Part shown: positions 46,380 to 61,405 of the stretch, piece after piece
How the letters are laid out: each line of letters starts with the position of its first letter
How positions within the stretch are numbered: position 1 is the stretch's first letter
NCBI GenBank assembly: GCA_035293125.1
Contig: DATDOS010000158.1
Location: 8,963-72,962, forward strand
Origin: Gaiellaceae bacterium
GTDB lineage: Bacteria; Actinomycetota; Thermoleophilia; Gaiellales; Gaiellaceae
Length of the DNA stretch: 64,000 nucleotides
Reading direction: 5' to 3'
The notes under the pieces: generated by a model
Databases searched by the model: none
What the model was told of the DNA's origin: nothing
What the model saw: the letters and a program-made list of their open reading frames with translations, nothing else
Made by a program: the position numbers and the translations under genes

Positions 46380-47075
46380 TCAGCCCGGGGGCGCGAGCAT
46401 GTAGCCGACACCGGACCTCGTGACGATGTAGCGGGGGTCAGAAGCGTGCTCCTCGAGCTTCTGCCGGAGCCGCCAGAGAGTCACGCGCAGCATGTGGTAG
46501 TCGCCGCGGCTGGTGCCTCCCCACACCCTCTCGAGCAGCTCGTCCCGAGTGAGGACGACCCCCACGCTCGTCGCGAGGCAAGCCAGGACGCGGAACTCAG
46601 TCGGCGAGAGACGCACCTCGCGTCCACGCACGGTCACCCGCTGCGCGAGCAGGTTGATCTCGAGGTCGCCCACCGTCAGCGCCGACTGACTCGGCGGGGG
46701 CGAGGTGGGATGCGCTCGCCGCAGGACGGCGCCGACGCGCGCGACGAGCTCCTGCGCCGAGAACGGCTTCGTCACGTAGTCGTCGGCTCCAAGGCCGAGT
46801 CCCCTGACCTTCTCTTCGTCGGCTCCCTTCGCGGTGAGGATGATGATCGGCGTCGTCGAGACCTCGCGGATCCGGCGGCAGACCGCGAAGCCGTCGAGGC
46901 CGGGCAGCATCACGTCCAGCACGACGAGGTCCGGCTCGCCCTGGGCGAGAAGCGCCAGCGCATGCTCGCCGGTGGCGGCGCACGTCACGCGGTACTTCCT
47001 TGCCTCGAGATTGAACCGGATGATCTGGAGGTAGCGCGGCTCGTCGTCGACGACGAGGATGTGCTCGCCTGCCAT
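46380..47075 (-). CDS. OmpR-family response regulator
   Basis: ATG 47075 with ILVVDDEP...DLVVLDVMLPGLDG...LTAKG receiver and a winged-helix output (LSPTEFRVL...GVGYML). ATGA overlap with the kinase gene. Confidence 0.92.
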   Translation of the reverse strand: MAGEHILVVDDEPRYLQIIRFNLEARKYRVTCAATGEHALALLAQGEPDLVVLDVMLPGLDGFAVCRRIREVSTTPIIILTAKGADEEKVRGLGLGADDYVTKPFSAQELVARVGAVLRRAHPTSPPPSQSALTVGDLEINLLAQRVTVRGREVRLSPTEFRVLACLATSVGVVLTRDELLERVWGGTSRGDYHMLRVTLWRLRQKLEEHASDPRYIVTRSGVGYMLAPPG

Positions 47076-49540
47076 CAGCGCCCCTCCTCGTGCGGCGACG
47101 CGCCGTCTTCGAAGAGCGGGAGCGAGAAGAGGAACGTGCTGCCGCTCCCGGGCCCGCTCTCGACCCAAAGCCGACCCCCCTGCGCCTCGACGATCGCCCT
47201 GCAGATCGCGAGCCCGAGGCCGGTTCCGCGGACACGGCGGCGCCGCGAGTTCTCGCCGCGGTAGAAGGGCTCGAAGATCGCCTCTCGCTCGTCTTCGGGA
47301 ATCCCGTCTCCACGGTCGGTGACGCTGACGACCGCCTCATCGGTTTCCCGGTGGACGACGAGCTCGACTCGAGTCTCCGGCTCGGAGTAGCGAGCGGCAT
47401 TATCGAGCAGGTTCCGCAGCACCTGCTCGATCCGTAGCGGGTCGACGAGCACCCGCAACTCGCCGTCGTGGTGGAAGGTCGACAGCGCATGCCCCGTCTC
47501 CTCGAGCATCGGTCGGGCTCGCGCCCCGACGTCCTCCACGAGCGCGTCGAGAGCCACGAGCTCGGTCTCGAGGGAGAGGCGACCGCTCTGGAAACGGGAG
47601 GCGTCGAGCAGATCGTCGATCATCTGCTGCAGCTTTGCAGCCTCCTCGTCGATGATCCGGACGAACGTCTGGCGCGTCGCGAGGTCGATCGGAGCGATGT
47701 CGTCGGAGAGCAGGGTCGTTGCGTAGCTGCGGATGAAGCCGAGCGGAGTCCGCAGCTCGTGGGACACGGCCGAGATGAGCTCCGCCTTGACCCGTTGCGC
47801 CTCGCGCTGCGTTTCGACCCGCCGGAGCTCGTCGAACAGACGCGCGTTCTCGATCGCCAGCGCGACCTCGTTTCCGATCGCGTGCAGCATCCGCCGCTCC
47901 CCGGGCGGGAGAGCATCGCCGCCATGCGAGAGGAGAAGGACTCCCAACGTCCGCCCACGGGCCTGGAGCGGAAGGATGGCGAGACTGCGTCCGGCGGGCG
48001 CCCGGCACGGTGGGCGGAATGTCCTGCGGGCGTCCGGGTCGAGGAAGAGGGCGTGCCCGCTCGCGGCCACGACCGCGCAGGGGCAGCGGTCCGCGCCGAC
48101 GTTCTGGTCTCGGCAGGGAAAGCCTGCTGAGTCGCCGCGAAAGATGGGTGGCTCCAGCTTCCCCGATCTCTCGTCCAGTAGCCGTACTGCGCCTGCGTCC
48201 ATATTGGTGTGCTCGAGGGCCACGTCGAGGCAGCGCCGCAACGTCGTTTCAACGTCGCGAAGCTCACTGGCGGCCGTCGCGACGGCCGCGAGGCCGGCGA
48301 GTTGGCGGTTGCGCATGCGGAGCTCGGTCGTCCGCTGCTCCACTTTCGCCTCGAGCTCCTCTCCCCAGCGCGTCACCTTTTCCAGCGAGTCGCGCAGCTG
48401 GGTCCGCATCGTCTCGAGGCTCGTCGCAAGGGCGCCGATCTCGCCGCCTTCCGCGACACGGACCGGCTCGTCGAGGTCTCCAGCCGCCATCCCCCCCGCC
48501 GCATGCGTCAACGTGCGCACCGGCCGTACGAGGAGCCGCGCGCCGACGAGCGTGACGACCCAGAGGAAGGCGAGCGCAAGCGCTCCCGCGAGCAGGAGGG
48601 TATTCCGAAGCCGCGCCACCGGGGCGAAGGTCTCGCGCGTCGATCCGCCCACGGACACGCCCCAAGGCGCGTTGGTCAGAGGCGCGAACGCCATCACGTG
48701 GTGCTCGCCCTCTCGATTCGCAGGCACCTGATGCCACGGCGTGTACGGGACGTCCTCGACGCCCGCCTCCCTCGCGCGGAGCTTTTGAAGGTAGAAGTCG
48801 AGGTGCTCGCCCGGCTTCAGGAACCCGCCGTAGCCGGTGGAGGCGACGATGAGTCCTCCCTCGCCTACCAGCTCCGCGTGACCCGTGTGCCCGACATCCT
48901 TCGCGTGGCTGAGCGGCTTCGAGACATCGGCACCGGCCACGTTCAGGAGTCCCACGAGGAGCGAGCGAACCGTGCCGTCGCGATTGAGGAGCGGTCTCGT
49001 GAGAGCGACGGCCGGCGCGCCCGTCGACGGATCGCGGAAGGGCGGCGAGACAGTGCGCCGCCTCGTGACGATCGCCTGTCTGACGTAGGGAGCGCGCGAG
49101 AGGTCGGCGCCCCGCTGCAGCTTGCCCGGCGGCTGCGAGAGGACGATTCTCCCGCGCGCGTCGAGGAAGTAGACGCCGAGGGAGAGAGTGCCGACGCGGC
49201 CGTACGCGTGGTTCAGCATGTGCACTTCCGCGGAGAGCGAGGGGGCAGCCGGATCGAAGCGGGCGAACCGCGTTGCCTGCTCGAGCTCGTAGAAGCCGCG
49301 CTCGAGCAAGCGATCGATGTCGCGTGCCGCCATCTTGGCGATGACGAGCCGCTCTTCCAGGATGCGGTCCGTGCTGTCCTCGACCGCGCGCAGGGCCAGC
49401 AGCGTGAAGACGGCGAACAGGAGGAGGAAGCCGCCTGTTACGGCGATGACGAGCCGCGGCCAGAGGTTGAGCCGACGCCACGTGGCGAGGAGCTTCACGG
49501 CCTTCAACCTCCTTGGTGCCTGCTGAGGGTGGATTCGCAT
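47075..49540 (-). CDS. Sensor histidine kinase (TM - extracytoplasmic Cache-like - HAMP - GAF - HisKA - HATPase)
   Basis: H-box AELISAVSHELRTPL, N/G boxes LLDNAARYS and GTGLGLAICRAIVEAQGG, and a GAF segment with a CPC motif. The start is uncertain (ATG 49540 or the upstream start at 49633). Confidence 0.88.
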   Translation of the reverse strand: MRIHPQQAPRRLKAVKLLATWRRLNLWPRLVIAVTGGFLLLFAVFTLLALRAVEDSTDRILEERLVIAKMAARDIDRLLERGFYELEQATRFARFDPAAPSLSAEVHMLNHAYGRVGTLSLGVYFLDARGRIVLSQPPGKLQRGADLSRAPYVRQAIVTRRRTVSPPFRDPSTGAPAVALTRPLLNRDGTVRSLLVGLLNVAGADVSKPLSHAKDVGHTGHAELVGEGGLIVASTGYGGFLKPGEHLDFYLQKLRAREAGVEDVPYTPWHQVPANREGEHHVMAFAPLTNAPWGVSVGGSTRETFAPVARLRNTLLLAGALALAFLWVVTLVGARLLVRPVRTLTHAAGGMAAGDLDEPVRVAEGGEIGALATSLETMRTQLRDSLEKVTRWGEELEAKVEQRTTELRMRNRQLAGLAAVATAASELRDVETTLRRCLDVALEHTNMDAGAVRLLDERSGKLEPPIFRGDSAGFPCRDQNVGADRCPCAVVAASGHALFLDPDARRTFRPPCRAPAGRSLAILPLQARGRTLGVLLLSHGGDALPPGERRMLHAIGNEVALAIENARLFDELRRVETQREAQRVKAELISAVSHELRTPLGFIRSYATTLLSDDIAPIDLATRQTFVRIIDEEAAKLQQMIDDLLDASRFQSGRLSLETELVALDALVEDVGARARPMLEETGHALSTFHHDGELRVLVDPLRIEQVLRNLLDNAARYSEPETRVELVVHRETDEAVVSVTDRGDGIPEDEREAIFEPFYRGENSRRRRVRGTGLGLAICRAIVEAQGGRLWVESGPGSGSTFLFSLPLFEDGASPHEEGR

Positions 49541-49958
49541 CGGACCGGAACCCTGTAGGCGGTCAGCGGCCCTGCTCCGACCCCGGGCAGTGTCGCGCGC
49601 CCCTTCGAGCCCGGAATGAGCAACATTGACCACCTTCCTGGTAGGCCGGTGGGCGCCCTCGTAGAGGGCATCCGCCGCACTCGCCCAGCGTGATCCCCTC
49701 CCCGCTCACTGTCAACCCGATCTCGTCGAGGTGAGCGGCACCGTCGTCGACGCCCGCCGGCTTCTCCGGAGGTACAGGCGCCCGAACGCAGCGGAGGAGT
49801 CACATCCCCTACCTGCCGGCGGCGGTCGAGGCAGCGTGGCTACGTCGAGCCACCCACCAAAGAGATGACCCTTCCGCCTGCAGCCGACGGCGGCTGCTCG
49901 GACTCACATGTCGAGGAGTTGAACCCCATACCGCATATGGCGATTCCAGGGCTCTCAG

Positions 49959-50004
49959 CGGGAGCGACGGGACTCGAACCCGCGACCTCCGGCGTGACAG
50001 GCCG
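49959..50004 (-). repeat. tRNA-Asp(GTC) 3'-half fragment, copy 2
   Basis: Identical core CGGGAGCGACGGGACTCGAACCCGCGACCTCCGGCGTGACAGGCCG on the plus strand. There is no 5' tRNA half. Confidence 0.85.
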
Positions 50005-50285
50005 GTACGGGCCCGACCGGTACAGCGGCTGCGACCGGGAGTTGCCGGCTGAAGGAGGCATTTCCTCGCCGAGCGAACCGGCGCTGACCGGCTACGACCC
50101 GCTGCCGCCCGGCCGAGCCTGTGTGGTACGCGTGTGGTCCCTCTAGTTACGAATTAGCAACAGAGCTATCGATGGGCGATCGCAACCCCTTACGTCGCGC
50201 GCAGCCACATCGCTTGAGGCATCCGCTGCTTCGTGCGCAACGGCCACGCACCGATCTCCGATCCACCCCGCGAGCAGGCAAACGC

Positions 50286-50329
50286 GGTTACACGCCTGAA
50301 ACAGTGCTGTAACGCCGGTTCCTTACAAG
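50286..50329 (+). promoter_or_regulatory. Candidate SARP-dependent promoter (a): GGTTACAC-N3-TGAAACAG-N3-TGTAACGC-8 nt-TACAAG
   Basis: 11-bp-phased repeats at 50286/50297/50308 and a hexamer at 50324-50329, 56 nt upstream of the kinase GTG. Confidence 0.5.
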
Positions 50330-50384
50330 GACTCCCGAGTCGTCCTATCGTTCCGGCAGGGCCCCCGAAAGCGAGGATGCGTAC

Positions 50385-53300
50385 GTGCAAGTGAGCGACG
50401 ACCCGCGGGTCGGCACCGAGCTCGCCGGCTACCGGATCGAGTCGCTGCTGGGCTGGGGCGGCATGAGCGTCGTCTACCTGGCCGAGGATTTGCGGCTCAA
50501 GCGGAGGGTTGCGCTCAAGCTGCTGGCTGCCAGCCTCGCCGAGGACGAATCGTTCCGTGGCCGCTTCCTGCGCGAGTCGGAGCTGGCCGCGTCTATCGAC
50601 CATCCGAACATCGTCCCGATCTACGAGGCCGGGACGACCGAGGACCTCCTCTTCATAGCCATGCGCTACGTCGAGGGGCGTGACCTGAAAGAGCGCCTCC
50701 AGCGCGGCCGTCTGGACCCGGCGGACGCGATAGGCATCCTCGCACAGGTGGCGAGCGCGCTGGATGCGGCCCACGCGCGCGGTCTCGTGCATCGCGACGT
50801 GAAGCCCTCCAACGTGCTGCTCGACACGGGTGCCCGCCCCGACGGCTCCGACCACGTCTACCTCGCGGACTTCGGCCTCACGACGCGGGTTTCCGAGGAG
50901 GCAGGAATCGGCGACGACGGCCGCCTCATGGGCACCATCGACTACGTCGCACCCGAGCAGATCGCCGGAGAGGAGATCGACGGACGGGCGGACGTGTACT
51001 CGCTCGGCTGCGTGCTCTACGAGTGTCTCGTCGGGCAGCCGCCATTCCGGAGTGATTCGGACCTCGCGGTGGTGTTCGCGCACCTCGAAACCGAGTCGCC
51101 GCCGCCGAGCGCCGGGCGGCCCGAGCTGCCGGCGGCGCTCGACGCCGTGATCGCCAGGGCGCTGGCGAAAGAGCCGGAGCAGCGCTACCCGAGCTGCCGC
51201 GAGTTCGTCCGAGCGGCGCTCGCGGTCGCGGTCGACGAGGCGAGCCGCGTGCTCGTCGACGTCGCCTCTCGCGCCGCCGCCGGCAGAAGTGACCTGGGCG
51301 AGGTCGAGGCCGAGCTGGCCGGGAAGGTGATCGACCTCCAGCTGGTGCGCGAGCAGGCGCGGGTCCTCTCGGGCCCGGACACCCCGACCCGCGTGGCGAC
51401 CGAGGGGGTATGCCCGTTCAAGGGGCTCGCAAGCTTCGAGCCGGTCGACGCCGACTACTTCTTCGGCCGGGAGCGGCTCGTGGCCGAGCTCGTCGCCCGC
51501 CTCGTCGGAGCCGGTTTCCTCGGCATCGTCGGCCCGTCGGGCAGCGGCAAGTCGTCGGTCCTCCGCGCCGGTCTCCTCCCGGCCCTCGCCGGAGGAGTGC
51601 TGCCGGGCAGCGGGGGCTGGCGGCGTCTGCTCCTGCGTCCCGGCGAGCGGCCGCTGGAGGAGCTTCGCCGCGTGCTCGTGTCGGGAGCGAAGGATCCTCT
51701 CGCCGAGGCCCTCGACACGCTGCCCCCGGGCGCGCGCCTTCTCCTCGCCGTCGACCAGCTCGAGGAGCTCCATACCGCCTGCCGCTCCGACGCCGAGCGC
51801 GCCGCATTCGCCGACACCCTTGCCCGCGCGGCTGCTGATCCGGAGGGTCGAGCAGTCGTGGTGGTCGCGCTGCGCGCCGACTTCTACGGGCGCTTCGCCG
51901 CGTACCCGGGGCTCGCCGAGCTGCTGGGCGCGAACCAGGTGCTGGTCGGGCCAATGCAGGCCTCCGAGTTGCGGCGCGCCGTCGAGCTGCCCGCCGGCCG
52001 GGTGGGGCTGCGGGTGGAGCCCGAGCTGGCCGACGCGCTGGTCCACGACGTCGAAGGTGAGCCAGGAGCGCTGCCGTTGCTGTCCACGGCCCTGCTCGAG
52101 CTCTGGCAGAAGAGGGAGGACGACGCGCTCACTTTGGCTGCCTATCGCGAATCCGGCGGCGTCCACGGCGCCGTCGCGCGGCTGGCGGAGGGCACGTACG
52201 CTCGCGTCCCGGACGAGCGCAGGCAGCTCGTACGCGCCGTCATGCTGCGTCTGGTCGGCGAGGACGACGGCGACGCGCCGGTGCGCCGCCGCGCTCCACT
52301 CGGGGAGCTCGACCTGGAGCGCAACGAAGACGTGGCCGACGTGCTCGCGACGCTGGCCGACAGCCGTCTCGTCACCGTGTCGGAAGGGAACGTCGAGGTC
52401 GCCCATGAGGCACTGCTGCGCGAGTGGCCGCGCCTGCGCGACTGGATCGAAGAGGACACCGAAGGGCGCCGGCTTCGCCGTCACATCACTCAGGCGGCGA
52501 CCGAGTGGGATGCGGCAGGGCGCGATCAGGGCGAGCTCTATCGCGGCGCCCGACTCGCCGCCGCCCTCGACTGGACCGCCGATCACGCGCTCGACGTCAA
52601 CGAGCTCGAGCGCGAGTTCGTCACCGAGAGCCGCGAGGCCTCGGAGAAAGAGACCAAACGGGTCCGGCGCACGAATCGCCGCCTCCGAGTCCTGCTCGCC
52701 GGAGTCGTGGTGTTGCTCGTCGCGGCCGTCGCCGGCGGGATCTTCGCGCTCGTCCAGCGCAGCGAAGCCCGAGACGCGGAGGCTGCACAGCTAGTGCAGC
52801 GCCTGGGCGCGCAGGCGCTCGTCGAGGACGACCTCGACCTCTCGCTCCTGCTCGCCCGGCAGGCAGTTGCGATCGACGACTCGCCGCAGACCCGCGGCTA
52901 CCTGCTCGCCGCACTCCGGCGCAGCCCCGCTGCGATCGGGGTCATGCATGGTCCCGCCGGGCGGCACGGCGTGCTCACGGGAGTCACAATCAGTCCCGAC
53001 GGGAAGACGCTGGCGGTGCTCTCCGGCGGCGGCGAGGTTCTGTTCTTAGATGCGCGAACCTACGCGCAGATCGGGGACCCGCTGACGGCGACGAATTCCG
53101 GCGAGTCGAGCCTTTCGTATAGCCCCGACGGGCGAACGCTCGCGGTCGGCGGCGACCACCTCGTTCGCCTCATCAGCGCGCGAACGCGTGCCCAGTTGGC
53201 CGAGACAGCCGTCGAAGGGGTCGCCACGCATCTGGCCTTCACGAAAGACGGGTCGCAGTTGGTCGTCGTTGTCGCCCCAGGCAGCTCCGCAAGCGACCTC

Positions 53301-54884
53301 GGCAGCAGAGGCGACGCGGAGATCACCGTCCGAGACGCCGTCAGGCTGAAGGCGATCGGTCCCTCGATCGAGCCGGACGCCTTCGTCGGCGCGTACGTCG
53401 GCTTCTGGTACGCGTCTCCTCAGTTTGCACCCACACCCGACGGTCGCTCCCTCATCACCGCGTCCGAGGACGGTGAGCTGGCGCGGTGGGATCTCGAGAG
53501 CCGCAAGAAGACCCGGACGTGGAGGATCGAGCCCGGCACCGCGCCCGCGCTCGCCATCAGCCCGGACGGTCTCACCGCGGCGGTCGGCATCAAGCACGGG
53601 GTGCAGCTGGTCGACCTCCGTGCCGGCACCGTGCGAACGGCAACCGCCGATCTCGCCGGGAGCCCGAACTGGGTGCTCTTCAGCCCGGACGGCAAGATGG
53701 TCGTGTCGACGAACCGTGACAAGACGGTGACTCGCTGGGACGTCGAGTCAGCGACCCCCCTCGAGACGCTGCGCGGCCACTCGAACTTCGTTCAGCAGCC
53801 CGTTTCCAGTCCCGACGGAGAGACGCTCTACACCGTGAGTCACGACGGCACTGCCATCGCCTGGGATCTCGCAGGCGACCGCAGGCTCGGGCGGCCTTTC
53901 ACGTTCACGCACGACCGGACGTTCTCCGCCGCCGGCTTTGACGGCCATCCGGGGAGATTCAGCCCGGACGGCCGGCTGATCGCGGTCGGCCTGAAGGAGC
54001 AGGGCGTCGCGCTTTGGGACGCGCGCAAGCTCAGGCCGGTCGGGGGACCGCTTCTCCACACGGGCGGCGAGGTCAAGAATCTCGCCTTCTCGCCAGATGG
54101 ACGAAAGCTTGCTGCAGTGACCGACGGAGGCTCTCTCACACTCTGGGACGTTGATTCGCGATCGCGGCTCCATGGTCCGCTCGGCGCGGGCGAGGCCCTT
54201 CTGCCCGGCGTCGGCTTCAACCCGAACGGGTCGACGCTCGCCACGGCGAGCGTGTTCGGCGTGACGCTCTGGGACGTGGCAACCGGAGCCAGTCTCAGCG
54301 AGTTCGGTAGGAACGCGAGCGACCTCGCCTTCAGCGCTGACGGGGCGACGATCGCGTTCGCCGACCCAAACGGAGGCGGCGCGGAGATCTGGGATGTGGC
54401 CAAGCGCTTGCTGGTCGCCGCCATGTTGGGAGACGAGGACTTCTCCGTCGCCCTCAGCCCCGGCGACCGGTTACTCGCGGTCGGTGGCTTCGGCAGAGTC
54501 GTACGCGTCTGGGACGTCCGCACCCGGAAGCTCCTCCACGAGCTCGACCAGGGTGGCAACGGAGCGTTCACCCTCGAGTTCACTCCGGATGGCCGGACTC
54601 TCGCCATCTCCGGATTCGAGCAGGCCGCGTCTCTTTGGGATGTGGCAACCGGAACGCAGATCGGCCCGCCGCTCACCGCCGGAGACCGCAGGACGATGAT
54701 CGACCTCTCGGCCGACGGACGGCAGATGTTGGAGACCCACGGCAACGGCAAAGGGGCAGTCTGGGACGTCGACCCCGAATCCTGGAAGCGCCGGGCTTGT
54801 GTCCTCGCCAACCGCACGCTGACCCGCGAGGAGTGGGACGAGTTCCTCCCAGGGCGGCCCTACGAGCCGGCTTGCGCGAGCTGA
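50385..54884 (+). CDS. Ser/Thr protein kinase - STAND P-loop NTPase - TM helix - WD40 beta-propeller protein (1499 aa)
   Basis: Kinase motifs VALKLL, HRDVKPSNVLL and DFG. P-loop context FFGRERLVAELVARLV...GIVGPSGSGKSSVLRAGLLPAL. TM helix LRVLLAGVVVLLVAAVAGGIFALV. Many SPDG...LWD WD40-like repeats follow. Confidence 0.9.
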   Translation: MQVSDDPRVGTELAGYRIESLLGWGGMSVVYLAEDLRLKRRVALKLLAASLAEDESFRGRFLRESELAASIDHPNIVPIYEAGTTEDLLFIAMRYVEGRDLKERLQRGRLDPADAIGILAQVASALDAAHARGLVHRDVKPSNVLLDTGARPDGSDHVYLADFGLTTRVSEEAGIGDDGRLMGTIDYVAPEQIAGEEIDGRADVYSLGCVLYECLVGQPPFRSDSDLAVVFAHLETESPPPSAGRPELPAALDAVIARALAKEPEQRYPSCREFVRAALAVAVDEASRVLVDVASRAAAGRSDLGEVEAELAGKVIDLQLVREQARVLSGPDTPTRVATEGVCPFKGLASFEPVDADYFFGRERLVAELVARLVGAGFLGIVGPSGSGKSSVLRAGLLPALAGGVLPGSGGWRRLLLRPGERPLEELRRVLVSGAKDPLAEALDTLPPGARLLLAVDQLEELHTACRSDAERAAFADTLARAAADPEGRAVVVVALRADFYGRFAAYPGLAELLGANQVLVGPMQASELRRAVELPAGRVGLRVEPELADALVHDVEGEPGALPLLSTALLELWQKREDDALTLAAYRESGGVHGAVARLAEGTYARVPDERRQLVRAVMLRLVGEDDGDAPVRRRAPLGELDLERNEDVADVLATLADSRLVTVSEGNVEVAHEALLREWPRLRDWIEEDTEGRRLRRHITQAATEWDAAGRDQGELYRGARLAAALDWTADHALDVNELEREFVTESREASEKETKRVRRTNRRLRVLLAGVVVLLVAAVAGGIFALVQRSEARDAEAAQLVQRLGAQALVEDDLDLSLLLARQAVAIDDSPQTRGYLLAALRRSPAAIGVMHGPAGRHGVLTGVTISPDGKTLAVLSGGGEVLFLDARTYAQIGDPLTATNSGESSLSYSPDGRTLAVGGDHLVRLISARTRAQLAETAVEGVATHLAFTKDGSQLVVVVAPGSSASDLGSRGDAEITVRDAVRLKAIGPSIEPDAFVGAYVGFWYASPQFAPTPDGRSLITASEDGELARWDLESRKKTRTWRIEPGTAPALAISPDGLTAAVGIKHGVQLVDLRAGTVRTATADLAGSPNWVLFSPDGKMVVSTNRDKTVTRWDVESATPLETLRGHSNFVQQPVSSPDGETLYTVSHDGTAIAWDLAGDRRLGRPFTFTHDRTFSAAGFDGHPGRFSPDGRLIAVGLKEQGVALWDARKLRPVGGPLLHTGGEVKNLAFSPDGRKLAAVTDGGSLTLWDVDSRSRLHGPLGAGEALLPGVGFNPNGSTLATASVFGVTLWDVATGASLSEFGRNASDLAFSADGATIAFADPNGGGAEIWDVAKRLLVAAMLGDEDFSVALSPGDRLLAVGGFGRVVRVWDVRTRKLLHELDQGGNGAFTLEFTPDGRTLAISGFEQAASLWDVATGTQIGPPLTAGDRRTMIDLSADGRQMLETHGNGKGAVWDVDPESWKRRACVLANRTLTREEWDEFLPGRPYEPACAS

Positions 54885-54891
54885 GCTCGAC

Positions 54892-56493
54892 TCAAGGTCG
54901 GATCGACCAGGTGAAGCGCGTCAGGGCGGCCGGAGGAGCGAGGCCGCCGGGGCGCAGACCCCGCCGCACGAGCAGCGTTGGTGGGGCGGCGTCTCTGGCG
55001 AGTCTGAGGCGAGCCGGGCCGAGGCCCTCGTGGTGCCACCTCGTCGACAGCCCGACGACGAGCAGTCCCGCGTAGCGGCTCGCCTCCAGCATGCCCTCCT
55101 CGCCGGGCGAGATCAGCAGCGGCTCGGCCGAGATGCCCAGGACGCGCTGAACTGCGAGCGCGCCGTGCGAGAGCAGGCGGCTCGCATCGCGCTTGCCTCG
55201 CTCCGGCACCGCTGCGACACCCGCGAGCCGGAGCGGCGCGCCACTTGCCCGCGCGAACCATGCGCCGAGCTCGACGGCCGCCCAGTCGTGGTCGGCTCCT
55301 CCGAACGGGACGAGCACCGGGCCTTGGGAGGTCGCCTCCCGGGGAACGAGCAGCGCGACGTCGCATGGCGCCTCCTCGAGGAGGGCGGTGAGCTGCTCGT
55401 CGGGAGCGCCCTCGGCCAGAAGCTCCTCGGGAGCGTCGGTAAGCAGGAAATCGACGTCGAGCTCGGTGGCGAACCGAGCCAGCTCCGCACCCGGCGCCGT
55501 CGACGTGAACGAGGCAGCACGAGCCACGACACCGCGCGCTTCGAGTGCGGACCGGCGCTCTTCGAGCCAGGCTGACGTGGGCCGGAGCTCGGCTGCGTCC
55601 GACAGGACCCTGGTCAGGATCATGACGCGAGGCGGATGTCGCACGAGCGGCTCGGCCACCGTGAGCAGCGCGTCGATGCGCGTCTCCTGGGCGATGGCAA
55701 CGAGAATCGACCGCTCCGCGACCTCCCGGACACCTGCAGTTGCCGTCGCTTCGCCATCCAGCGACGGGTCCTGTCGAAGGATCGCGCGCTCCAGCTCCTG
55801 GAGCGCCGGACTCGGATCGATCCCGAGCCCGTCGACGAGCGCGCGGCGCGCGTCCTGGTACGCCTCCAGGGCTTCCGCCTGCCGGCCCGACCGGTACAGC
55901 GCGGTCATCAGATACCCCCGCAGGCGCTCGCGGAGCGGGTGCTCCGCGACGAGTGCCTCGAGCTCTCCGACCAGCTCATCGTGGCGTGCGAGCGCGAGAT
56001 CGGCGTCGATCCGGAGCTCGACTGCTGCCAGCCTGATTTCCTCGAGCCGGGCGATGGCGGCCTGGGCGAAGCTTTCGTAGGCGAAGTCCGCGAGCGCCGG
56101 GCCTCTCCACAGCGACAGCGCGTCGCGGAGCCGCCCCGACGCGTCCGCTGCCAGGCTGCGAGCCAGCAGCCCCCTCCCTTCGTCCACCAGGCGCTCGAAG
56201 CGGTGGAGGTCGAGCTCGTCGGGCTCGACGCGGACGACATAGCCCGGGGATCTGGTCGTCAGTACGTCTGCGGGAAGCGCCTTGCGAAGTCGCGAGACGT
56301 TGACCCGCAGCGCGGCGGCGGCGCCCTCGGGCGAGTCCTCACCCCAGAGCTCGTCGATCAGCCGGTCAGCAGGAACGACCTCGTTGAGGTGAAGGAGGAA
56401 CAGGGCGAGAAGCGCACGCGGCTTGGGCCCACCCAGTGACACCTCGTGGTCCCCGTCCCACACCTCGAGCGGGCCCAGGATCCGGAACTCCAT
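54892..56493 (-). CDS. SARP-family transcriptional activator (OmpR-type wHTH + BTAD) with C-terminal USP-like tandem domain
   Basis: ATG 56493, 5 nt after GGAGG. MEFRILGPLEVWDGDHEVSLGGPKPRALLALFLL..., BTAD LDLHRFERLV...ALSLWRGPALADF...RLAAVELRIDADLALARHDELVGELEALV, then alpha/beta USP-like repeats. Confidence 0.88.
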   Translation of the reverse strand: MEFRILGPLEVWDGDHEVSLGGPKPRALLALFLLHLNEVVPADRLIDELWGEDSPEGAAAALRVNVSRLRKALPADVLTTRSPGYVVRVEPDELDLHRFERLVDEGRGLLARSLAADASGRLRDALSLWRGPALADFAYESFAQAAIARLEEIRLAAVELRIDADLALARHDELVGELEALVAEHPLRERLRGYLMTALYRSGRQAEALEAYQDARRALVDGLGIDPSPALQELERAILRQDPSLDGEATATAGVREVAERSILVAIAQETRIDALLTVAEPLVRHPPRVMILTRVLSDAAELRPTSAWLEERRSALEARGVVARAASFTSTAPGAELARFATELDVDFLLTDAPEELLAEGAPDEQLTALLEEAPCDVALLVPREATSQGPVLVPFGGADHDWAAVELGAWFARASGAPLRLAGVAAVPERGKRDASRLLSHGALAVQRVLGISAEPLLISPGEEGMLEASRYAGLLVVGLSTRWHHEGLGPARLRLARDAAPPTLLVRRGLRPGGLAPPAALTRFTWSIRP

Positions 56494-56524
56494 CTCGCCT
56501 CCTGGCGCGAACGCTAACACCGAC

Positions 56525-56568
56525 TGTTGCGCGCCTGAAACGGGGCTGAAACGAGTCAGGGGGAGGAT
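56525..56568 (+). promoter_or_regulatory. Candidate SARP-dependent promoter (b): TGTTGCGC-N3-TGAAACGG-N3-TGAAACGA-8 nt-GAGGAT
   Basis: Repeats at 56525/56536/56547. It lies in the divergent gap between the SARP gene and secreted paralog 1. Confidence 0.6.
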
Positions 56569-56605
56569 CGGGCTTCACAAACGGGTCTCCAGAAAGGAGC
56601 GACCG

Positions 56606-57040
56606 ATGAAGACTCACTACGTCGTGCTCGTCGCGCTCATTGCGGCAGTCACGCTGGCCTCCGTGGCGGCGGCAACACCCGGCGCCGTCAAGCAGCGGGT
56701 CGCGATCGCGTCAAAGCTGTACCCGGAGCGCACATTCGTATTCACCCCGGTCACAGCCGGACCGCTCAAGCGCGACTCCGGCACCGTAGGTTTCGATGCC
56801 GGTACCTTCACGTTCAAGGGAAAGCGGGGCACTCTCACGATTCGCGAGTTGTACGAAAACTGGGTGAACTGCGGGAGCGAGGAACACAAGGGCGTCATTC
56901 CTGCGGTCGACATCGGCCCCTGGAAGGTCGTGCGCGGGACTGGCCAGTACAAGGGCGTCACCGGAGGCGGGGAGAGTGCGCAAGCGGGGCTCGGCAACCC
57001 GTGGTACGCGCGCCAAGAGGGGTACCTCGCGTCTCCGTAG
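56606..57040 (+). CDS. Small secreted protein, paralog 1 (144 aa)
   Basis: AAAGGAG RBS and signal peptide MKTHYVVLVALIAAVTLASVAAA. Shared family motifs KGKRGTLTIRE and WKVVRGTGQYKGVTGGG...GYL. Confidence 0.75.
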   Translation: MKTHYVVLVALIAAVTLASVAAATPGAVKQRVAIASKLYPERTFVFTPVTAGPLKRDSGTVGFDAGTFTFKGKRGTLTIRELYENWVNCGSEEHKGVIPAVDIGPWKVVRGTGQYKGVTGGGESAQAGLGNPWYARQEGYLASP

Positions 57041-57053
57041 CGCGTACTCCAAC

Positions 57054-57088
57054 GAGACGGGCGGGCGCTCCGGTGCGCCGCCCGTCTC
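57054..57088 (+). terminator. GC-rich hairpin after paralog 1
   Basis: GAGACGGGCGGGCGC-TCCG-GTGCGCCGCCCGTCTC. Confidence 0.6.
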
Positions 57089-57108
57089 GGCCCACGGCCG
57101 CCGTCACC

Positions 57109-57152
57109 TGTTGCGCGACTGAAACGGATCTGAAACGGGCCGGCTCGATAGT
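57109..57152 (+). promoter_or_regulatory. Candidate SARP-dependent promoter (c): TGTTGCGC-N3-TGAAACGG-N3-TGAAACGG-8 nt-GATAGT
   Basis: Repeats at 57109/57120/57131, 37 nt upstream of ATG 57189. Confidence 0.6.
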
Positions 57153-57188
57153 GGGGTTCGAGCAAAGAGCAGAACGCGAGGAAAGGAG

Positions 57189-58253
57189 ATGGGGACGATG
57201 CCCAGGAATCGAGTTCAACGCCTCGGCGCGATCGGCCTCATCTCGGCAGTCGGGCTCGTAGCGACAGCCGGTGCCGCATCGGCACCGGCCACGGGGTCTC
57301 AGCTCGCTGCGAACTCTGCGCGAGCGAGCTCGCAGATCGCCTTCATCAGCGAGCCTCCGGCCGGCGGCTACTGCGGCCTTGTCTACGTCATGAACGCCGA
57401 CGGGAGCAGGCGGCACAGGCTGGCCGATGGCCCGGCGGATGAGTGCGCGCAGGAGTGGGGTCCAGCCTGGGCGCCCGACGGGCGGACGATCGCCTTCGTC
57501 GGCAATTCCAAGATCTACGTCACGAACGCCAACGGGAGCGGGCAGCGGCGGCTGACGCACACCGCTGCCTCGGAAGGTTCTCCGGCCTGGTCGCCCGACG
57601 GGCGGAGGATCGCCTTCACGAGATACCGCCAGAGCACTGGCGAGATCTACATCGTGAACGCCGACGGCACTGGGCAGCGGAGGCTGACACGCAACGGGGC
57701 GGGCAACTTCGCTCCGGTCTGGGGATACTTCGCTCCGGTCTGGTCGCCCGACGGGCAGAGGATCGCCTTCGTCAGCCGACGTGACGGCAACTTGGAGGTC
57801 TACGTCATGAACGCCGACGGGAGCAGGGAGCGGAGGCTGACACACAACGCTGTGCGCGACGAATACCCACTCTGGTCGCCCGACGGGCGAAGGATCGCCT
57901 ACGTCAACAATTTGCGACAGGTCTACGTCATGAACGCCGATGGCAGCGGGCAGCGGAGCCTGACAGGCAACGCTGCGCGCAGCGTCGCTCCTGCCTGGTC
58001 TCCCGACGGACAGAGGATCGCCTTCGTCAACGACGGCGTCAACGTCATCAACGCCGACGGGAGCGGGCAGCGGAGGCTGTCGCAAGACGGCGCGCAACCT
58101 TCCTGGTCGCCCGATGGCCAGAAGATCGCGTTCGCGAAGAACTCCGACATCTACGTCATGAACGCCGACGGAAGCGGACAGCGGAACTTGACGCGCAGCA
58201 ACCGTCGCGAAAGCTCGCCTCTCTGGTCGCCCGGACGGAGCAGCGCAGGATGA
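57189..58253 (+). CDS. Secreted PD40/TolB-like beta-propeller repeat protein
   Basis: 354 aa with a signal peptide. Seven or more repeats of the form IYVMNADGSGQRRLT...P.WSPDG.RIAF. Confidence 0.85.
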   Translation: MGTMPRNRVQRLGAIGLISAVGLVATAGAASAPATGSQLAANSARASSQIAFISEPPAGGYCGLVYVMNADGSRRHRLADGPADECAQEWGPAWAPDGRTIAFVGNSKIYVTNANGSGQRRLTHTAASEGSPAWSPDGRRIAFTRYRQSTGEIYIVNADGTGQRRLTRNGAGNFAPVWGYFAPVWSPDGQRIAFVSRRDGNLEVYVMNADGSRERRLTHNAVRDEYPLWSPDGRRIAYVNNLRQVYVMNADGSGQRSLTGNAARSVAPAWSPDGQRIAFVNDGVNVINADGSGQRRLSQDGAQPSWSPDGQKIAFAKNSDIYVMNADGSGQRNLTRSNRRESSPLWSPGRSSAG

Positions 58254-59191
58254 GCACGCCGAGGAAGATCGGCGTGCTCGCCGTGGCAGCGGCGATCAGC
58301 CTTGCGGCGCTGGCCGTCGTCCTGATGGCACGCCCCGAAACTGCGACAACTCGAGGTGCGAACGCTCCGCTCGAGCCGAGAACCGCGGTGACGAAGCCCG
58401 GCGCGCCGAAGTTCGACTACGTGTTCGACCTGAACACCGGCGTCAAGACACCGCTGCCCAGCGCCATCATCCGATCGGCGGCCAAGCTGGGGCAGTATGC
58501 GGCCTCACCCGACGGATCCCTGCTCGCCTACGTCGGGGACGACAACGACGGAACCCCTCAGATCTTCGTTGCACGCGTCGACGGCAGCGGGATCCGACAG
58601 TTGACCCACGATCCGGTGCGTGCCGCGTCGCCCGCTTGGTCGCCGGATGGGACCAAGATCGCGTACGGGGGATTCGGGAGTCTCTTCGTGCTCGATGTCG
58701 CCACGGGCGAATCCACACCGACTGCTGGCGCAGGCGGACCCTGGGCTCAGCCCCAGTTCACGCCGGACGGCTCGTCACTCCTGTACACCGACCCTGGCCC
58801 GTCTGACTATGGCTCGGTACTCCGGACCGTCCCGATCGAAGGCGGGAAGAGCACGGTCCTGATCGGCCCGGACGAGGGAATGGGCCACGCGGGGAACGGC
58901 TCGCTGTCACCTGACGGCTCGCTCGTGACCATGATGGGCAACGAGATCAACGGTCCCGGGGCGATCCGCTTTGTCGCCAACGTCGACGGCACGGAGCTGC
59001 GATCCATCCCCGAAGGCAGCTCGAATCCGGCGGGGACATGGTCTCCCGACGGAGACCGGATCGTCTGCTCGGACTACGCACGGAGGAACATCCTCGTCGT
59101 CGACATCGCGACGGGCAGCGCTTCGCGCGTCGCCAAAGGCCGTGCGGCGATCTGGCTGGGTGCGCACGCGTTGCTCGTCGACGTCGCCTGA
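58250..59191 (+). CDS. Membrane-anchored PD40-like beta-propeller protein
   Basis: 313 aa, ATGA overlap with the upstream gene. N-terminal TM IGVLAVAAAISLAALAVVLM and repeats SPDGSLLAY and WSPDGTKIAY. Confidence 0.8.
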   Translation: MSTPRKIGVLAVAAAISLAALAVVLMARPETATTRGANAPLEPRTAVTKPGAPKFDYVFDLNTGVKTPLPSAIIRSAAKLGQYAASPDGSLLAYVGDDNDGTPQIFVARVDGSGIRQLTHDPVRAASPAWSPDGTKIAYGGFGSLFVLDVATGESTPTAGAGGPWAQPQFTPDGSSLLYTDPGPSDYGSVLRTVPIEGGKSTVLIGPDEGMGHAGNGSLSPDGSLVTMMGNEINGPGAIRFVANVDGTELRSIPEGSSNPAGTWSPDGDRIVCSDYARRNILVVDIATGSASRVAKGRAAIWLGAHALLVDVA

Positions 59192-59237
59192 GGATCGCGT
59201 CGAGCGCTCCCGTCGGGGCAGAACGGACGCCGTCAGC

Positions 59238-59281
59238 TGTAGCTCGACTGAAACGGACCTGAAACGGCTCGGGTCGATCAT
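59238..59281 (+). promoter_or_regulatory. Candidate SARP-dependent promoter (d): TGTAGCTC-N3-TGAAACGG-N3-TGAAACGG-8 nt-GATCAT
   Basis: Repeats at 59238/59249/59260, 37 nt upstream of ATG 59318. Confidence 0.6.
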
Positions 59282-59317
59282 CCGCTTCCGACAGATGACC
59301 ATCGAGAGGAGGCACCG

Positions 59318-59764
59318 ATGAACGTCCGATACACCGTGCTCGTCGCCGTCGCGGCGGCGGTCGCACTGGCGTCTGTCGCCACTGCGGCACCCGACGCCGG
59401 CAGACAGCAGATCACGATCATGTCGCGGCTGTATCCGGGTGGGACATTCGTGTTCACACCGCTGGTACCCGGAGCGCTGAAGCGTGACTCCGGCAAGGTC
59501 GGCGTCGAGGACTCCGGCTACGACACCAGCGACTTCACGTTCAGGGGGAAGCGCGGCACCCTCACGCTTCGCGAGCAGACCGAGTGGGTGGACATCTGGA
59601 ACGAGGAAGTGAACGGCGTCACTCCAGGGGTGTCCATCGGCCCATGGAAGGTCGTGCGGGGGACCGGCCAGTACGCCAAGGTCACCGGAAGCGGCCGGAG
59701 TGTCCAGGTCGGGCTCGGCAACATCTGGTACGCGCGCCACGAGGGGTACCTCAAGGTCCCGTAG
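59318..59764 (+). CDS. Small secreted protein, paralog 2 (148 aa)
   Basis: GAGGAGG RBS and signal peptide. Motifs RGKRGTLTLRE and WKVVRGTGQYAKVTGSG...GYL. Confidence 0.75.
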   Translation: MNVRYTVLVAVAAAVALASVATAAPDAGRQQITIMSRLYPGGTFVFTPLVPGALKRDSGKVGVEDSGYDTSDFTFRGKRGTLTLREQTEWVDIWNEEVNGVTPGVSIGPWKVVRGTGQYAKVTGSGRSVQVGLGNIWYARHEGYLKVP

Positions 59765-59817
59765 CGCCCTGCGACGCGACGGGCGGCGCGCACTCGTGTG
59801 CCGCTCGTCTCCGCACT

Positions 59818-59861
59818 TGTTGCGCAGGTGAAACGGACCTGAAACGGGCCGGGTCGACCAT
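59818..59861 (+). promoter_or_regulatory. Candidate SARP-dependent promoter (e): TGTTGCGC-N3-TGAAACGG-N3-TGAAACGG-8 nt-GACCAT
   Basis: Repeats at 59818/59829/59840, 40 nt upstream of ATG 59901. Confidence 0.6.
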
Positions 59862-59900: not shown

Positions 59901-60371
59901 ATGAAAGCTCGATATGCCGTGCTCGTCGCGATCGTCGCGGCGGTCACGCTCACGTCCGTTGCGGCGGCCGGCCCTGACGCGGCGAAGCAGCGCGTGGCGA
60001 TCGTGATGAATGACTTGCCCGACGGCAAGTTCTTGCTCAGCCCATTCCAGCTCGGAGCGGTCAAGAGCGACTCGGGCAGGACCAGCGTCGCCCTGAGCGG
60101 CCCGAACGTCGTGATGCGCGAGGGGCAGACGATCGAGGTCTGGCGCAATACCTGGACGCTCACGGGAAAGCGGGGGAGCCTCACGATTCGAGAGCGCGTC
60201 GAGTGGATCGACGCCGGGCAGCCCTTTATCGGCACCGGCACCTGGAAGCTCGTGCGGGGAACGGGCCAGTACGCCGGGATCGCGGGTAGCGGGCGGAGTG
60301 CCTCTGCGGGGCTCAATCGTGCGAATGGGGCCTGGTTCGTGCGCTACGAAGGCTTCCTCATCCTGCCGTAG
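59901..60371 (+). CDS. Small secreted protein, paralog 3 (156 aa)
   Basis: CAGGAGG RBS and signal peptide. Motifs TGKRGSLTIRE and WKLVRGTGQYAGIAGSG...GFL. Confidence 0.75.
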   Translation: MKARYAVLVAIVAAVTLTSVAAAGPDAAKQRVAIVMNDLPDGKFLLSPFQLGAVKSDSGRTSVALSGPNVVMREGQTIEVWRNTWTLTGKRGSLTIRERVEWIDAGQPFIGTGTWKLVRGTGQYAGIAGSGRSASAGLNRANGAWFVRYEGFLILP

Positions 60372-60386
60372 CGCACTGCCCGAGAC

Positions 60387-60414
60387 GGGCGGCGCGTCCC
60401 CGGGCGCGCCGCCC
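60387..60414 (+). terminator. GC-rich hairpin after paralog 3
   Basis: GGGCGGCGCG ... CGCGCCGCCC, a perfect 10-bp stem. Confidence 0.55.
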
Positions 60415-60496
60415 ACCACCGGTGGAGTTGACGGGGTAAGGGGACGCGCGTCAGCGTCGAGGGATCTATCCACGTCCCCTCCGAAAGGAGCGACGC

Positions 60497-61405
60497 ATGA
60501 AGCACCAATCGAAGGTCGGAGTCTCCGCCGCAGTCGTGCTCGTCGCGCTGCTGGCCACGACGGTCGCATCTGCGATGAACTTCTCGCCCTGGGCGCCCGC
60601 ACAGGCCGTGGCCGAACTGAACACTGCGTCGAGTGACGGCTGCCCGATCCAGTCACCCGACGGTCTGAGCTTCTACCTGGCCTCGAACCGCACGGGCACA
60701 CTCGGCGGTCTCGACATCTGGGTCGCGACACGGGAGGACGCCGACGATCCTTGGTCGACGCCCGTGAATCTCGGGGCGCCGATCAACTCGGCGGCTGACG
60801 ACTTCTGCCCGACGCCAATCCGCGGGGGCGGTCTCTTCTTCGCGAGCAGGCGGGAGCCCGCAAGCTGTGGCACGAATGACAGCGACCTCTACTTCACCCG
60901 CCTCAACCCGGCCCACGGGTGGAGCGAGCCGCTGCACCTCGCGTGCGCGGTCGATGGAGGCCCGAACAGCACCCTCGACGAGATGGGCCCCTCGTACGTG
61001 GAAGTCGATGGACGGGGGCTCCTCTTCTTCTCGAGCGGCCCCGACATCTACATGAGCGAGCGGGGTTCGGGCTGGAGCTTCGGCCCGGCGCAAGCCGTCA
61101 CGGAGCTCAACAGCGCGTCGAGCGACATTCAGCCGAACGTCCGCAAGGACGGGCGCGAGGTCGTCTTCGCCTCGAACCGCGTGGACACGCTGGGCGGCCA
61201 GGACATCTGGATCGCTACACGGGAGGACGCCGACGATCCGTTCTCGACGCCCGTGAACCTCGGCTCGGCTGTCAACACCACGGCCAACAATGAGACACGC
61301 CCCTCGTTCTCCCGGGACGCCAAGATGCTCTACTTCGGTCGCGCGCCGACCGCCGGAGGACCGGGCGACATCTACATGACGACGCGGGAGAAGCTCGCAG
61401 GCTGA
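60497..61405 (+). CDS. Secreted PD40/TolB-like repeat protein
   Basis: 302 aa with AAAGGAG RBS and a signal peptide. The repeated module ELN(T/S)ASSD..P..S.DG...(F/Y).ASNR...LGG.DIW(V/I)ATREDADDP(W/F)STPVNLG occurs twice. Confidence 0.8.
   Translation: MKHQSKVGVSAAVVLVALLATTVASAMNFSPWAPAQAVAELNTASSDGCPIQSPDGLSFYLASNRTGTLGGLDIWVATREDADDPWSTPVNLGAPINSAADDFCPTPIRGGGLFFASRREPASCGTNDSDLYFTRLNPAHGWSEPLHLACAVDGGPNSTLDEMGPSYVEVDGRGLLFFSSGPDIYMSERGSGWSFGPAQAVTELNSASSDIQPNVRKDGREVVFASNRVDTLGGQDIWIATREDADDPFSTPVNLGSAVNTTANNETRPSFSRDAKMLYFGRAPTAGGPGDIYMTTREKLAG

Follow-up and report, generated by a model that had tools for sequence, protein, structure and literature searches.

What switches on a cluster of genes that share a repeat array where a −35 element would be expected, and is the regulator gene in their midst responsible? 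The question arises in a 64,000-nt stretch of a Gaiellaceae bacterium (contig DATDOS010000158.1; hereafter the window), where five such arrays, here called boxes (a) to (e), flank a gene encoding a SARP-family regulator (54892–56493, − strand). Comparison of the window with related loci points to activator-dependent SARP-box promoters that are probably served by the adjacent protein, a SARP fused to a tandem Usp domain. We assign this reading a probability of roughly 0.8.

Five phased-repeat boxes in the window

All five boxes lie on the + strand and are built alike, with three direct repeats in 11-bp phase, an 8-nt spacer and then a hexamer that has A at its second position (A2). The distal unit is TGTTGCGC-like, the two proximal units are TGAAACGG and the three 8-nt cores are 3 nt apart; the repeat period is exactly 11 in 5/5 window sites and in the 121 related sites described below. 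Box (b) (TGTTGCGC-gcc-TGAAACGG-ggc-TGAAACGA; 56525–56554) precedes par1, a gene for a small secreted protein, and diverges from the SARP gene. Box (c) (TGTTGCGC-gac-TGAAACGG-atc-TGAAACGG; 57109–57138) stands before an operon of PD40 genes, and boxes (d) (TGTAGCTC-gac-TGAAACGG-acc-TGAAACGG; 59238–59267) and (e) (TGTTGCGC-agg-TGAAACGG-acc-TGAAACGG; 59818–59847) stand before par2 and par3, paralogs of par1. The corresponding predicted −10 hexamers, also on the + strand, are GAGGAT for box (b) (56563–56568), where the prediction draws on position-specific conservation of A2 and of T at position six (T6), GATAGT for box (c) (57147–57152), GATCAT for box (d) (59276–59281; the most frequent hexamer of the family, 38/121) and GACCAT for box (e) (59856–59861). 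Box (a) (GGTTACAC-gcc-TGAAACAG-tgc-TGTAACGC; 50286–50315), which precedes a kinase-STAND gene, belongs to a separate promoter class (class III, below).

An earlier note on this DNA had described these five sites, and reading the window sequence bore out each of its coordinates, the + orientation throughout and the exact 8-nt spacer (5/5). Start codons follow the hexamers by 36–55 nt, close to the 37–56 nt given there. The claim of a geometry common to all five sites also stands, with the qualification that box (a) is a weak match (3 mismatches across the two proximal repeats) and that the predicted −10-like hexamer 8 nt past it, TACAAG (50324–50329, +), lacks T6.

With up to three mismatches allowed, TGAAACGG-N3-TGAAACGG occurs in the 64 kb at these 5 sites only (shuffle mean 0.13; 0/100 shuffles reach 5), and the 30-nt pattern at the same tolerance yields 4 window sites where 0.00 are expected, so the boxes are far beyond chance. 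A scan of the region found no canonical −35/−10 promoter, no TTGACA-like hexamer was seen by scan or by eye, and it is the repeats that occupy the −35 position. The PD40 gene at 60497 is the sole cluster gene lacking a box, as the earlier note had said and a pattern scan confirmed; by eye, it has its own sigma-70-like sequence upstream, TTGACG-N18-CAGCGT (60425–60470).

This architecture had been likened to that of known SARP operators, and both the 5 window sites and the 121 related sites fit the published rule, in which direct repeats are 11 or 22 bp apart and the 3′ repeat stands 8 bp away from the −10, overlapping the −35 (PMC10936776, PMC11301090). In AfsR, every protomer touches the leading 8 bp of its 11-bp repeat (PMC10936776, PMC11301090), and the −10 of afsS, CACTGT, is likewise an nAnnnT hexamer whose first base is not T (PMC10936776).

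Conservation and linkage across related loci

The boxes were compared across three assembly loci (L001–L003) and 80 metagenome loci (L124–L203) carrying SARP relatives 55–89% identical to the window protein; counts near the SARP start refer to the 67 loci with enough upstream DNA. At up to three mismatches, the core pattern gave 135 matches in 610 kb, 132 of which are opposite in strand to the SARP gene and point away from it. In 63/67 loci a box stands on the opposite strand at 30–36 nt from the start codon of the SARP gene, and 59 of these have a hexamer with both A2 and T6 at +8. When overlapping arrays were merged, a ribosome-binding site and open reading frame came after 113/130 sites, 23–124 nt past the hexamer (median 43).

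A profile of 121 unique sites resolves cores of 8–9 conserved bases, each preceded by C and separated from the next by 2–3 free bases, then a fixed 8-nt gap and a hexamer with A2 in 115/121 sites, T6 in 98/121 and both in 97/121. These two bases (A28 and T32 of the profile) are the best-conserved positions downstream of the array, and A2/T6 at 8 nt is, by its sequence, the housekeeping −10 pattern (−11A, −7T). The distal core (TGTTGCGC or GGTTACGC) differs consistently from both proximal cores, in the 121 sites as well as in window boxes (c)–(e). It resembles the main repeat of a sister clade, CGTTACCG. Four phased repeats, with the 8-nt distance to the hexamer kept, were seen in L171 (2193–2215), L179 (2711–2722) and L159 (1460–1471, minus strand).

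The sites fall into three promoter classes that have a common geometry but not common flanks. Class I precedes cargo genes (...ACCGGGTC-GATCAT...), class II precedes, in some loci, the gene that diverges from the SARP gene (...CCGGAGCG-CAnCCT...) and class III precedes the kinase gene (GGTTACGC..TGAAACnG..TGtAACGC-CGGTTCGT-TACAnn). Class I promoters of unrelated genes also have in common some sequence in the spacer and a block after the −10, CGGaTTCGACAG.

Genes following the boxes belong to the par family (28), the kinase-STAND family (~20), a secreted VCPO/PAP2-like group (15), the PD40 group (~10), a 140-aa family (7) and others, and nearly all of their products carry a signal peptide or membrane anchor. 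Strains with SARPs at 85% identity carry different cargo genes, each of them with a box before it. The kinase gene is convergent with the SARP gene in L001–L003; a kinase-domain homolog lies near the SARP gene in six distant-clade loci, and in L198 this homolog is divergent and comes immediately after the box. Two SARP paralogs were seen near such genes: a 1013-aa SARP with a Peripla_BP_6 domain, divergent from the kinase gene (L002, 16474–19515), and a SARP with a membrane segment and a propeller-like part, beside a par-family gene and with different phased repeats of its own (L035, 1585–2346). Judging from these gene neighborhoods, there seem to be several SARP-controlled secreted-protein cassettes per genome.

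In an independent scan, the exact 16-nt core was searched in one genome per species; it gave at least 120 matches, mostly chance occurrences in unrelated phyla, and so served as a negative control rather than to delimit a genome-wide regulon. Among the 120 matches listed, 7 have a distal TGTT repeat together with an A2 hexamer at +8, and in 5 of these the hexamer is GAnnAT. All 7 come from metagenome-assembled genomes (MAGs) of Gaiellaceae, Solirubrobacterales or other Actinomycetota and have a SARP or kinase homolog no more than a few hundred bases away; the full architecture is present in none of the other 113 matches listed.

Box sequence and recognition helix change together

Homologs of the SARP–Usp protein at 55–59% identity have no TGAAACGG box. 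Their repeats, again triple, in 11-bp phase and at the same divergent position, differ in sequence: CTCAGCG in L193, L199, L200, L198 and L203, CGTTACCG in L195, L201, L202 and L194, and CGTAACCG in L197. Comparison with shuffles shows the repeats to be significant in 8/10 loci. When a single register is taken per clade, an A2/T6 hexamer comes 8 nt after them (GATTGT, CATCTT, GAGATT, CACCGT, GACGAT, GAGGAT or CAGCCT).

Box sequence co-varies with the SARP recognition helix across clades. The helix A-L-R-V-N-V-S-R-L-R-K accompanies the TGAAACGG box, I/L-Q-Y-Y/H/F-V-S-Q-L-R-K accompanies CTCAGCG and Q/R-V/M-R/H-V-S-Q-L-R-K accompanies CGTTACCG, with clade-specific cores RVNVSR, QYYVSQ and QVRVSQ. 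AfsR residues T88 and R92, which contact bases (PMC10936776), align to V64 and R68 of the window SARP, both of which are among the clade-variable positions. We assign the boxes to the adjacent SARP because of this co-variation, because box and gene are linked (63/67 loci; 7/7 independent matches) and because of the strand bias (132/135).

A SARP with a tandem Usp domain

Residues 2–245 of the 533-aa regulator comprise an OmpR-type winged helix and a BTAD (Pfam Trans_reg_C, 4.6e-12; BTAD, 3e-48), in agreement with the earlier placement of a SARP gene at 54892–56493 amid the cluster. The same residues match the SARP domain of AfsR at E 5e-52 (RNA-polymerase complexes 8hvr, 8k60 and 8jke), and phmmer matches EmbR (2fez; chain residues 12–276, SARP part only) at E 1e-40. 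Residues ~250–533 have only a sub-threshold Pfam match to Usp (E 3e-4). An AlphaFold2 model of this C-terminal part (predicted local distance difference test, pLDDT, 75; predicted template modeling score, pTM, 0.77) matches UspE, TTHA0350 and Rv2623, all of them tandem Usp structures, at a probability of 1.0 and a template modeling (TM) score of ~0.6, and the C-terminus is, according to this model, a tandem-type Usp domain of two α/β folds. The SARP has no Pfam match to NOD/NB-ARC or TPR domains and so is not of the AfsR type; it likewise has no match to an FHA domain and so is not of the EmbR type.

At E ≤ 1e-3 the family of the C-terminal domain has 1120 representative clusters; a cut-off of E ≤ 1e-30 leaves 297. 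Ten sampled members were eight Trans_reg_C + BTAD fusions (some with a cyclase) and two Na+/H+ exchangers, and the SARP–tandem-Usp subfamily is taken to span at least 297 clusters at 50% identity (E ≤ 1e-30). A full-text literature search returned no paper with a link between SARP and Usp in its title or abstract. The window SARP is identical to a protein (P0001) of an ENA soil assembly, and orthologs at 83–89% identity are very abundant in soil metagenomes.

A candidate extended −10 element of the SARP gene itself, TGT-TAGCGT (TGTTAGCGT; ACGCTAACA), lies on the − strand at 56511–56519, 17 nt before the start codon. It adjoins the distal repeat of box (b), with a gap of 8 nt in the window and of 5 nt in most orthologs, and 58/67 orthologous loci carry ACGCTA[AG]C no more than 60 nt from the SARP start. 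This arrangement suggests that the putative SARP-gene promoter overlaps the gene's own operator, which would permit autoregulation.

The promoter of the kinase gene

Box (a) is a degenerate site, and 17 loci keep it in this form ahead of the kinase-STAND gene. In these loci the DNA on the upstream side of the distal repeat is unalignable and conservation starts sharply at the box; the TACA of the hexamer is conserved, T6 being absent. A degenerate box retained next to unalignable DNA argues for selection on the motif, and the same view in the earlier note, which had preferred selection here over cassette duplication, is thereby upheld. The 5′ untranslated region (UTR) of the gene (50330–50384; CGAGTCGTCCTATCGTTCC...GAAAGCGAGGATGCGCACGTGCAAGTG) is near-invariant in the 17 orthologous loci, well beyond what is expected of a leader, and an out-of-frame ATG lies directly before the GTG start.

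A model for activation, and its difficulties

In the mechanism we propose, promoters without a −35 element would be read by the housekeeping sigma factor and switched on by the SARP encoded at 54892–56493. SARP protomers would sit side by side on the 11-bp repeats, one to each 8-bp core, thus covering two TGAAACGG units and the divergent distal TGTTGCGC. The promoter-proximal protomer, separated by 8 bp from the weak −10 (nAnnnT) downstream of it, would replace the −35 contact and recruit RNA polymerase, for which the AfsR structure offers a precedent. The predicted regulon is local, consisting of one- or two-gene cassettes for exported proteins (par and PD40 here; VCPO/PAP2-like and other proteins elsewhere) plus the neighboring kinase-STAND–WD40 gene. 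A signal might enter through the Usp domain or through the kinase, which, by analogy with AfsK/AfsR and PknH/EmbR, may phosphorylate the SARP. The SARP gene may also regulate itself, given that its candidate extended −10 adjoins the distal repeat.

Several observations weigh against this interpretation. The hexamers mostly begin with G or C rather than T and the kinase promoter lacks T6; the −10 assignment therefore rests on A2/T6 conservation and on spacing. The 8-nt gap found across clades hinges on the repeat register picked for each clade. Since the distal repeat is unlike the proximal ones, the same protein may bind it unequally, and a nearby SARP paralog (as in L002, 16474–19515, and L035) could contribute. 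Promoters (b), (d) and (e) come from duplicated cassettes, and part of their similarity within the window is common descent. Finally, the host is uncultured, and SARP binding, transcription starts and activation at the boxes are predictions from sequence.

Other explanations of the boxes

The boxes could be true operators that are occupied by a different protein, either an OmpR/PhoB-type response regulator with PHO-box-like 11-bp repeats or another SARP paralog, an explanation we consider improbable. Direct repeats phased at 11 bp are shared by the OmpR/PhoB winged-helix class at large. AfsR has itself been compared with OmpR-family regulators (PMC11301090). The window also contains a sensor histidine kinase gene (47075–49633), and extra SARP paralogs lie beside the kinase gene in L002 and also occur in L035. 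However, the box tracks the SARP–Usp gene (in 63/67 loci and 7/7 independent matches) and changes along with that protein's recognition helix across clades, whereas the paralogs have different helices and the L035 paralog has different repeats of its own. The 8-bp distance to the −10 is the SARP signature, and the neighborhood gene tables contain no conserved response-regulator gene.

It is very unlikely that the TGAAAC units are instead −35 elements of promoters read by an alternative sigma factor of the extracytoplasmic function (ECF) type. The −35 consensus of Bacillus subtilis sigma-W is identical to TGAAAC, and TGTAAC resembles that of sigma-X. A GTC also lies 18 nt past the middle repeat in 49/121 sites, but it is limited to one promoter class. 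An ECF-sigma promoter with an AAC-core −35 and a CGT or GTT −10 at N16–17 was tried as a candidate and failed, with CGT or GTT at that distance after either repeat in at most 6/121 sites. The best-conserved downstream bases, A28 and T32, follow the housekeeping −10 pattern instead. Three phased copies with a divergent distal copy would be unexpected for a −35, sister clades have unrelated repeats in the same phasing, and the gene tables list no sigma-factor gene within 10 kb.

Least credible is the notion that the similarity is a mere by-product of recent tandem duplication of cassettes with their flanks and has no regulatory meaning: par1–par3 are paralogous with homologous downstream hairpins, and class I promoters are alike in the spacer and just past the −10, but boxes also precede unrelated genes (kinase-STAND, PD40, VCPO-like and others), each repeat alternates 8–9 conserved with 2–3 free bases, conservation extends across loci with unalignable surroundings and sister clades have a different box in the same geometry, so that pure duplication accounts for part of the similarity of (b), (d) and (e) and not for the rest.

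Genes and cassettes of the window

The labels that the earlier note had given to the kinase-STAND, secreted-paralog and PD40 genes are supported by Pfam and by the paralogy and signal peptides seen. The kinase-STAND gene (50385–54884, +), a predicted SARP target, encodes a 1499-aa protein with Ser/Thr kinase, nSTAND1 NTPase and WD40 parts (Pfam). The secreted small proteins are encoded by par1 (56606–57040, +; 144 aa), par2 (59318–59764, +; 148 aa) and par3 (59901–60371, +; 156 aa), which are paralogous and have signal peptides; the par3 product is identical to a hypothetical protein (P0271) of a Gaiellaceae bacterium MAG at NCBI. Between par1 and par2 lies the two-gene PD40 β-propeller operon (57189–59191, +; Pfam), whose genes (57189–58253 and 58250–59191) overlap at stop and start.

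Each par gene is followed on the + strand by a GC-rich hairpin without a U-tract, at 57054–57088 after par1 (−38.9 kcal/mol, z −4.2; terminator-like), at 59778–59809 after par2 (−32.1 kcal/mol) and at 60387–60414 after par3 (−34.9 kcal/mol). The three hairpins are mutually homologous, which indicates that the par cassettes were duplicated along with their flanks, and their presence after par1–par3 defines the cassette as box promoter, gene and hairpin. No hairpin of this type follows the PD40 operon (59192–59237). A hairpin sequestering the Shine–Dalgarno sequence (CTCC-N5-GGAG) in the par 5′UTRs was considered and rejected as weak and non-significant (z −2.1, +0.1 and −1.6; 1 pattern match, 0.37 expected). 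The par3 protein, and with it the par family, is predicted to form an 8-stranded β-barrel (pLDDT 85); matches to DUF3224, dirigent and AbyU barrels were weak (best E 3e-3, TM 0.42–0.48) and no function was assignable from them.

A defense role for the kinase-STAND protein was likewise set aside: PADLOC gave generic kinase-domain matches only for the kinase and none for the SARP, par1 or PD40 proteins, and NCBIfam gave none above its cut-offs. No biosynthetic gene cluster was seen around the SARP gene in the window or in the neighborhood gene tables. Divergent from the kinase-STAND gene is the sensor histidine kinase gene mentioned above (− strand; dCache-HAMP-GAF-HisKA-HATPase), whose position is not kept in L002 and L003; it occupies the place upstream of the window kinase gene where a second SARP had been considered. 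Just upstream of the cluster, a tRNA-like remnant (49965–50024, −; anticodon loop CUGUCAC) reaches 27.4 bits against the Rfam tRNA model (gathering score 29) over model positions 6–65 only. ARAGORN finds no tRNA upstream of the kinase gene, and the remnant could be a decayed tRNA or what is left of an attachment site.

Comparison with known SARP systems

AfsR has a Ser/Thr kinase partner, AfsK. The system of AfsR and the afs box of the afsS promoter in Streptomyces coelicolor, for which cryo-EM structures of the SARP with RNA polymerase exist, resembles the Gaiellaceae one in its homologous SARP domain, the 8 contacted bases per 11-bp repeat, a suboptimal −10 at 8 nt and the overlap with the −35 position. 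However, AfsR carries NOD (NB-ARC) and TPR domains where the Gaiellaceae SARP carries a tandem Usp domain, and in the Gaiellaceae system it is the kinase protein, rather than the SARP, that bears the STAND NTPase. The afs box has two repeats, whereas the Gaiellaceae boxes have three with the distal one divergent, and the predicted Gaiellaceae targets are secreted-protein genes rather than afsS or antibiotic pathways.

In Mycobacterium tuberculosis, the genes for EmbR and the kinase PknH are paired, and the FHA domain of EmbR docks on the phosphorylated kinase. The likeness here lies in the homologous SARP domain (2fez) and the pairing of a SARP gene with a Ser/Thr kinase gene; the Gaiellaceae SARP, in contrast, has a tandem Usp domain and no FHA, and its kinase carries nSTAND1 and WD40 parts. 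ActII-ORF4, DnrI and RedD are small cluster-situated SARPs with heptameric repeats. Like the proposed Gaiellaceae activator, they are activators with targets in the immediate neighborhood and 11-bp-phased repeats 8 bp from the −10 (rule: PMC10936776). Unlike them, the Gaiellaceae regulator has an extra sensor-like domain, its locus has no biosynthetic cluster that we could see and its host belongs to the Thermoleophilia, not the streptomycetes.

PimR, a SARP-LAL regulator of Streptomyces natalensis, has three direct repeats with 4-bp spacers between its gene and the divergent target (PMC3367932), and thus offers the same three-repeat array in an intergenic region between regulator and divergent target. 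The PimR site is far upstream with no −35 overlap, whereas the Gaiellaceae array lies 8 bp from the −10, and the C-terminal domains of the two proteins differ.

Implications for Gaiellaceae and the SARP family

The mechanism itself is the known, textbook mechanism of SARPs, and the surprise is therefore limited. What is new is the SARP–tandem-Usp subfamily, the conserved pairing of its members with a kinase-STAND gene and the predicted control of that gene, a putative secreted-protein cassette regulon in uncultured Gaiellaceae and the co-variation of operator and recognition helix. To our knowledge, SARPs have been studied almost solely as activators of antibiotic pathways in streptomycetes. 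The boxes give the SARP–tandem-Usp subfamily a comparatively validated, sequence-level operator, in an abundant group of uncultured soil bacteria and with predicted targets that are secreted-protein and STAND kinase genes, not biosynthetic ones.

More speculatively, the SARP–tandem-Usp protein and the kinase-STAND–WD40 protein may constitute a widespread, self-contained signaling module of soil Thermoleophilia and other Actinomycetota, a domain-shuffled counterpart of AfsK/AfsR. Such a module might drive portable, fast-turnover cassettes of box promoter, secreted-protein gene and hairpin, amounting to an inducible, strain-variable secretome that could possibly serve in conflict or envelope remodeling. 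Box control of the kinase gene would add feedback, and operator and helix may have co-diversified into several orthogonal pairs. The co-varying sets of box and helix offer a direct route to testing the rules of DNA recognition by SARPs, and possibly a source of orthogonal activator–promoter parts.

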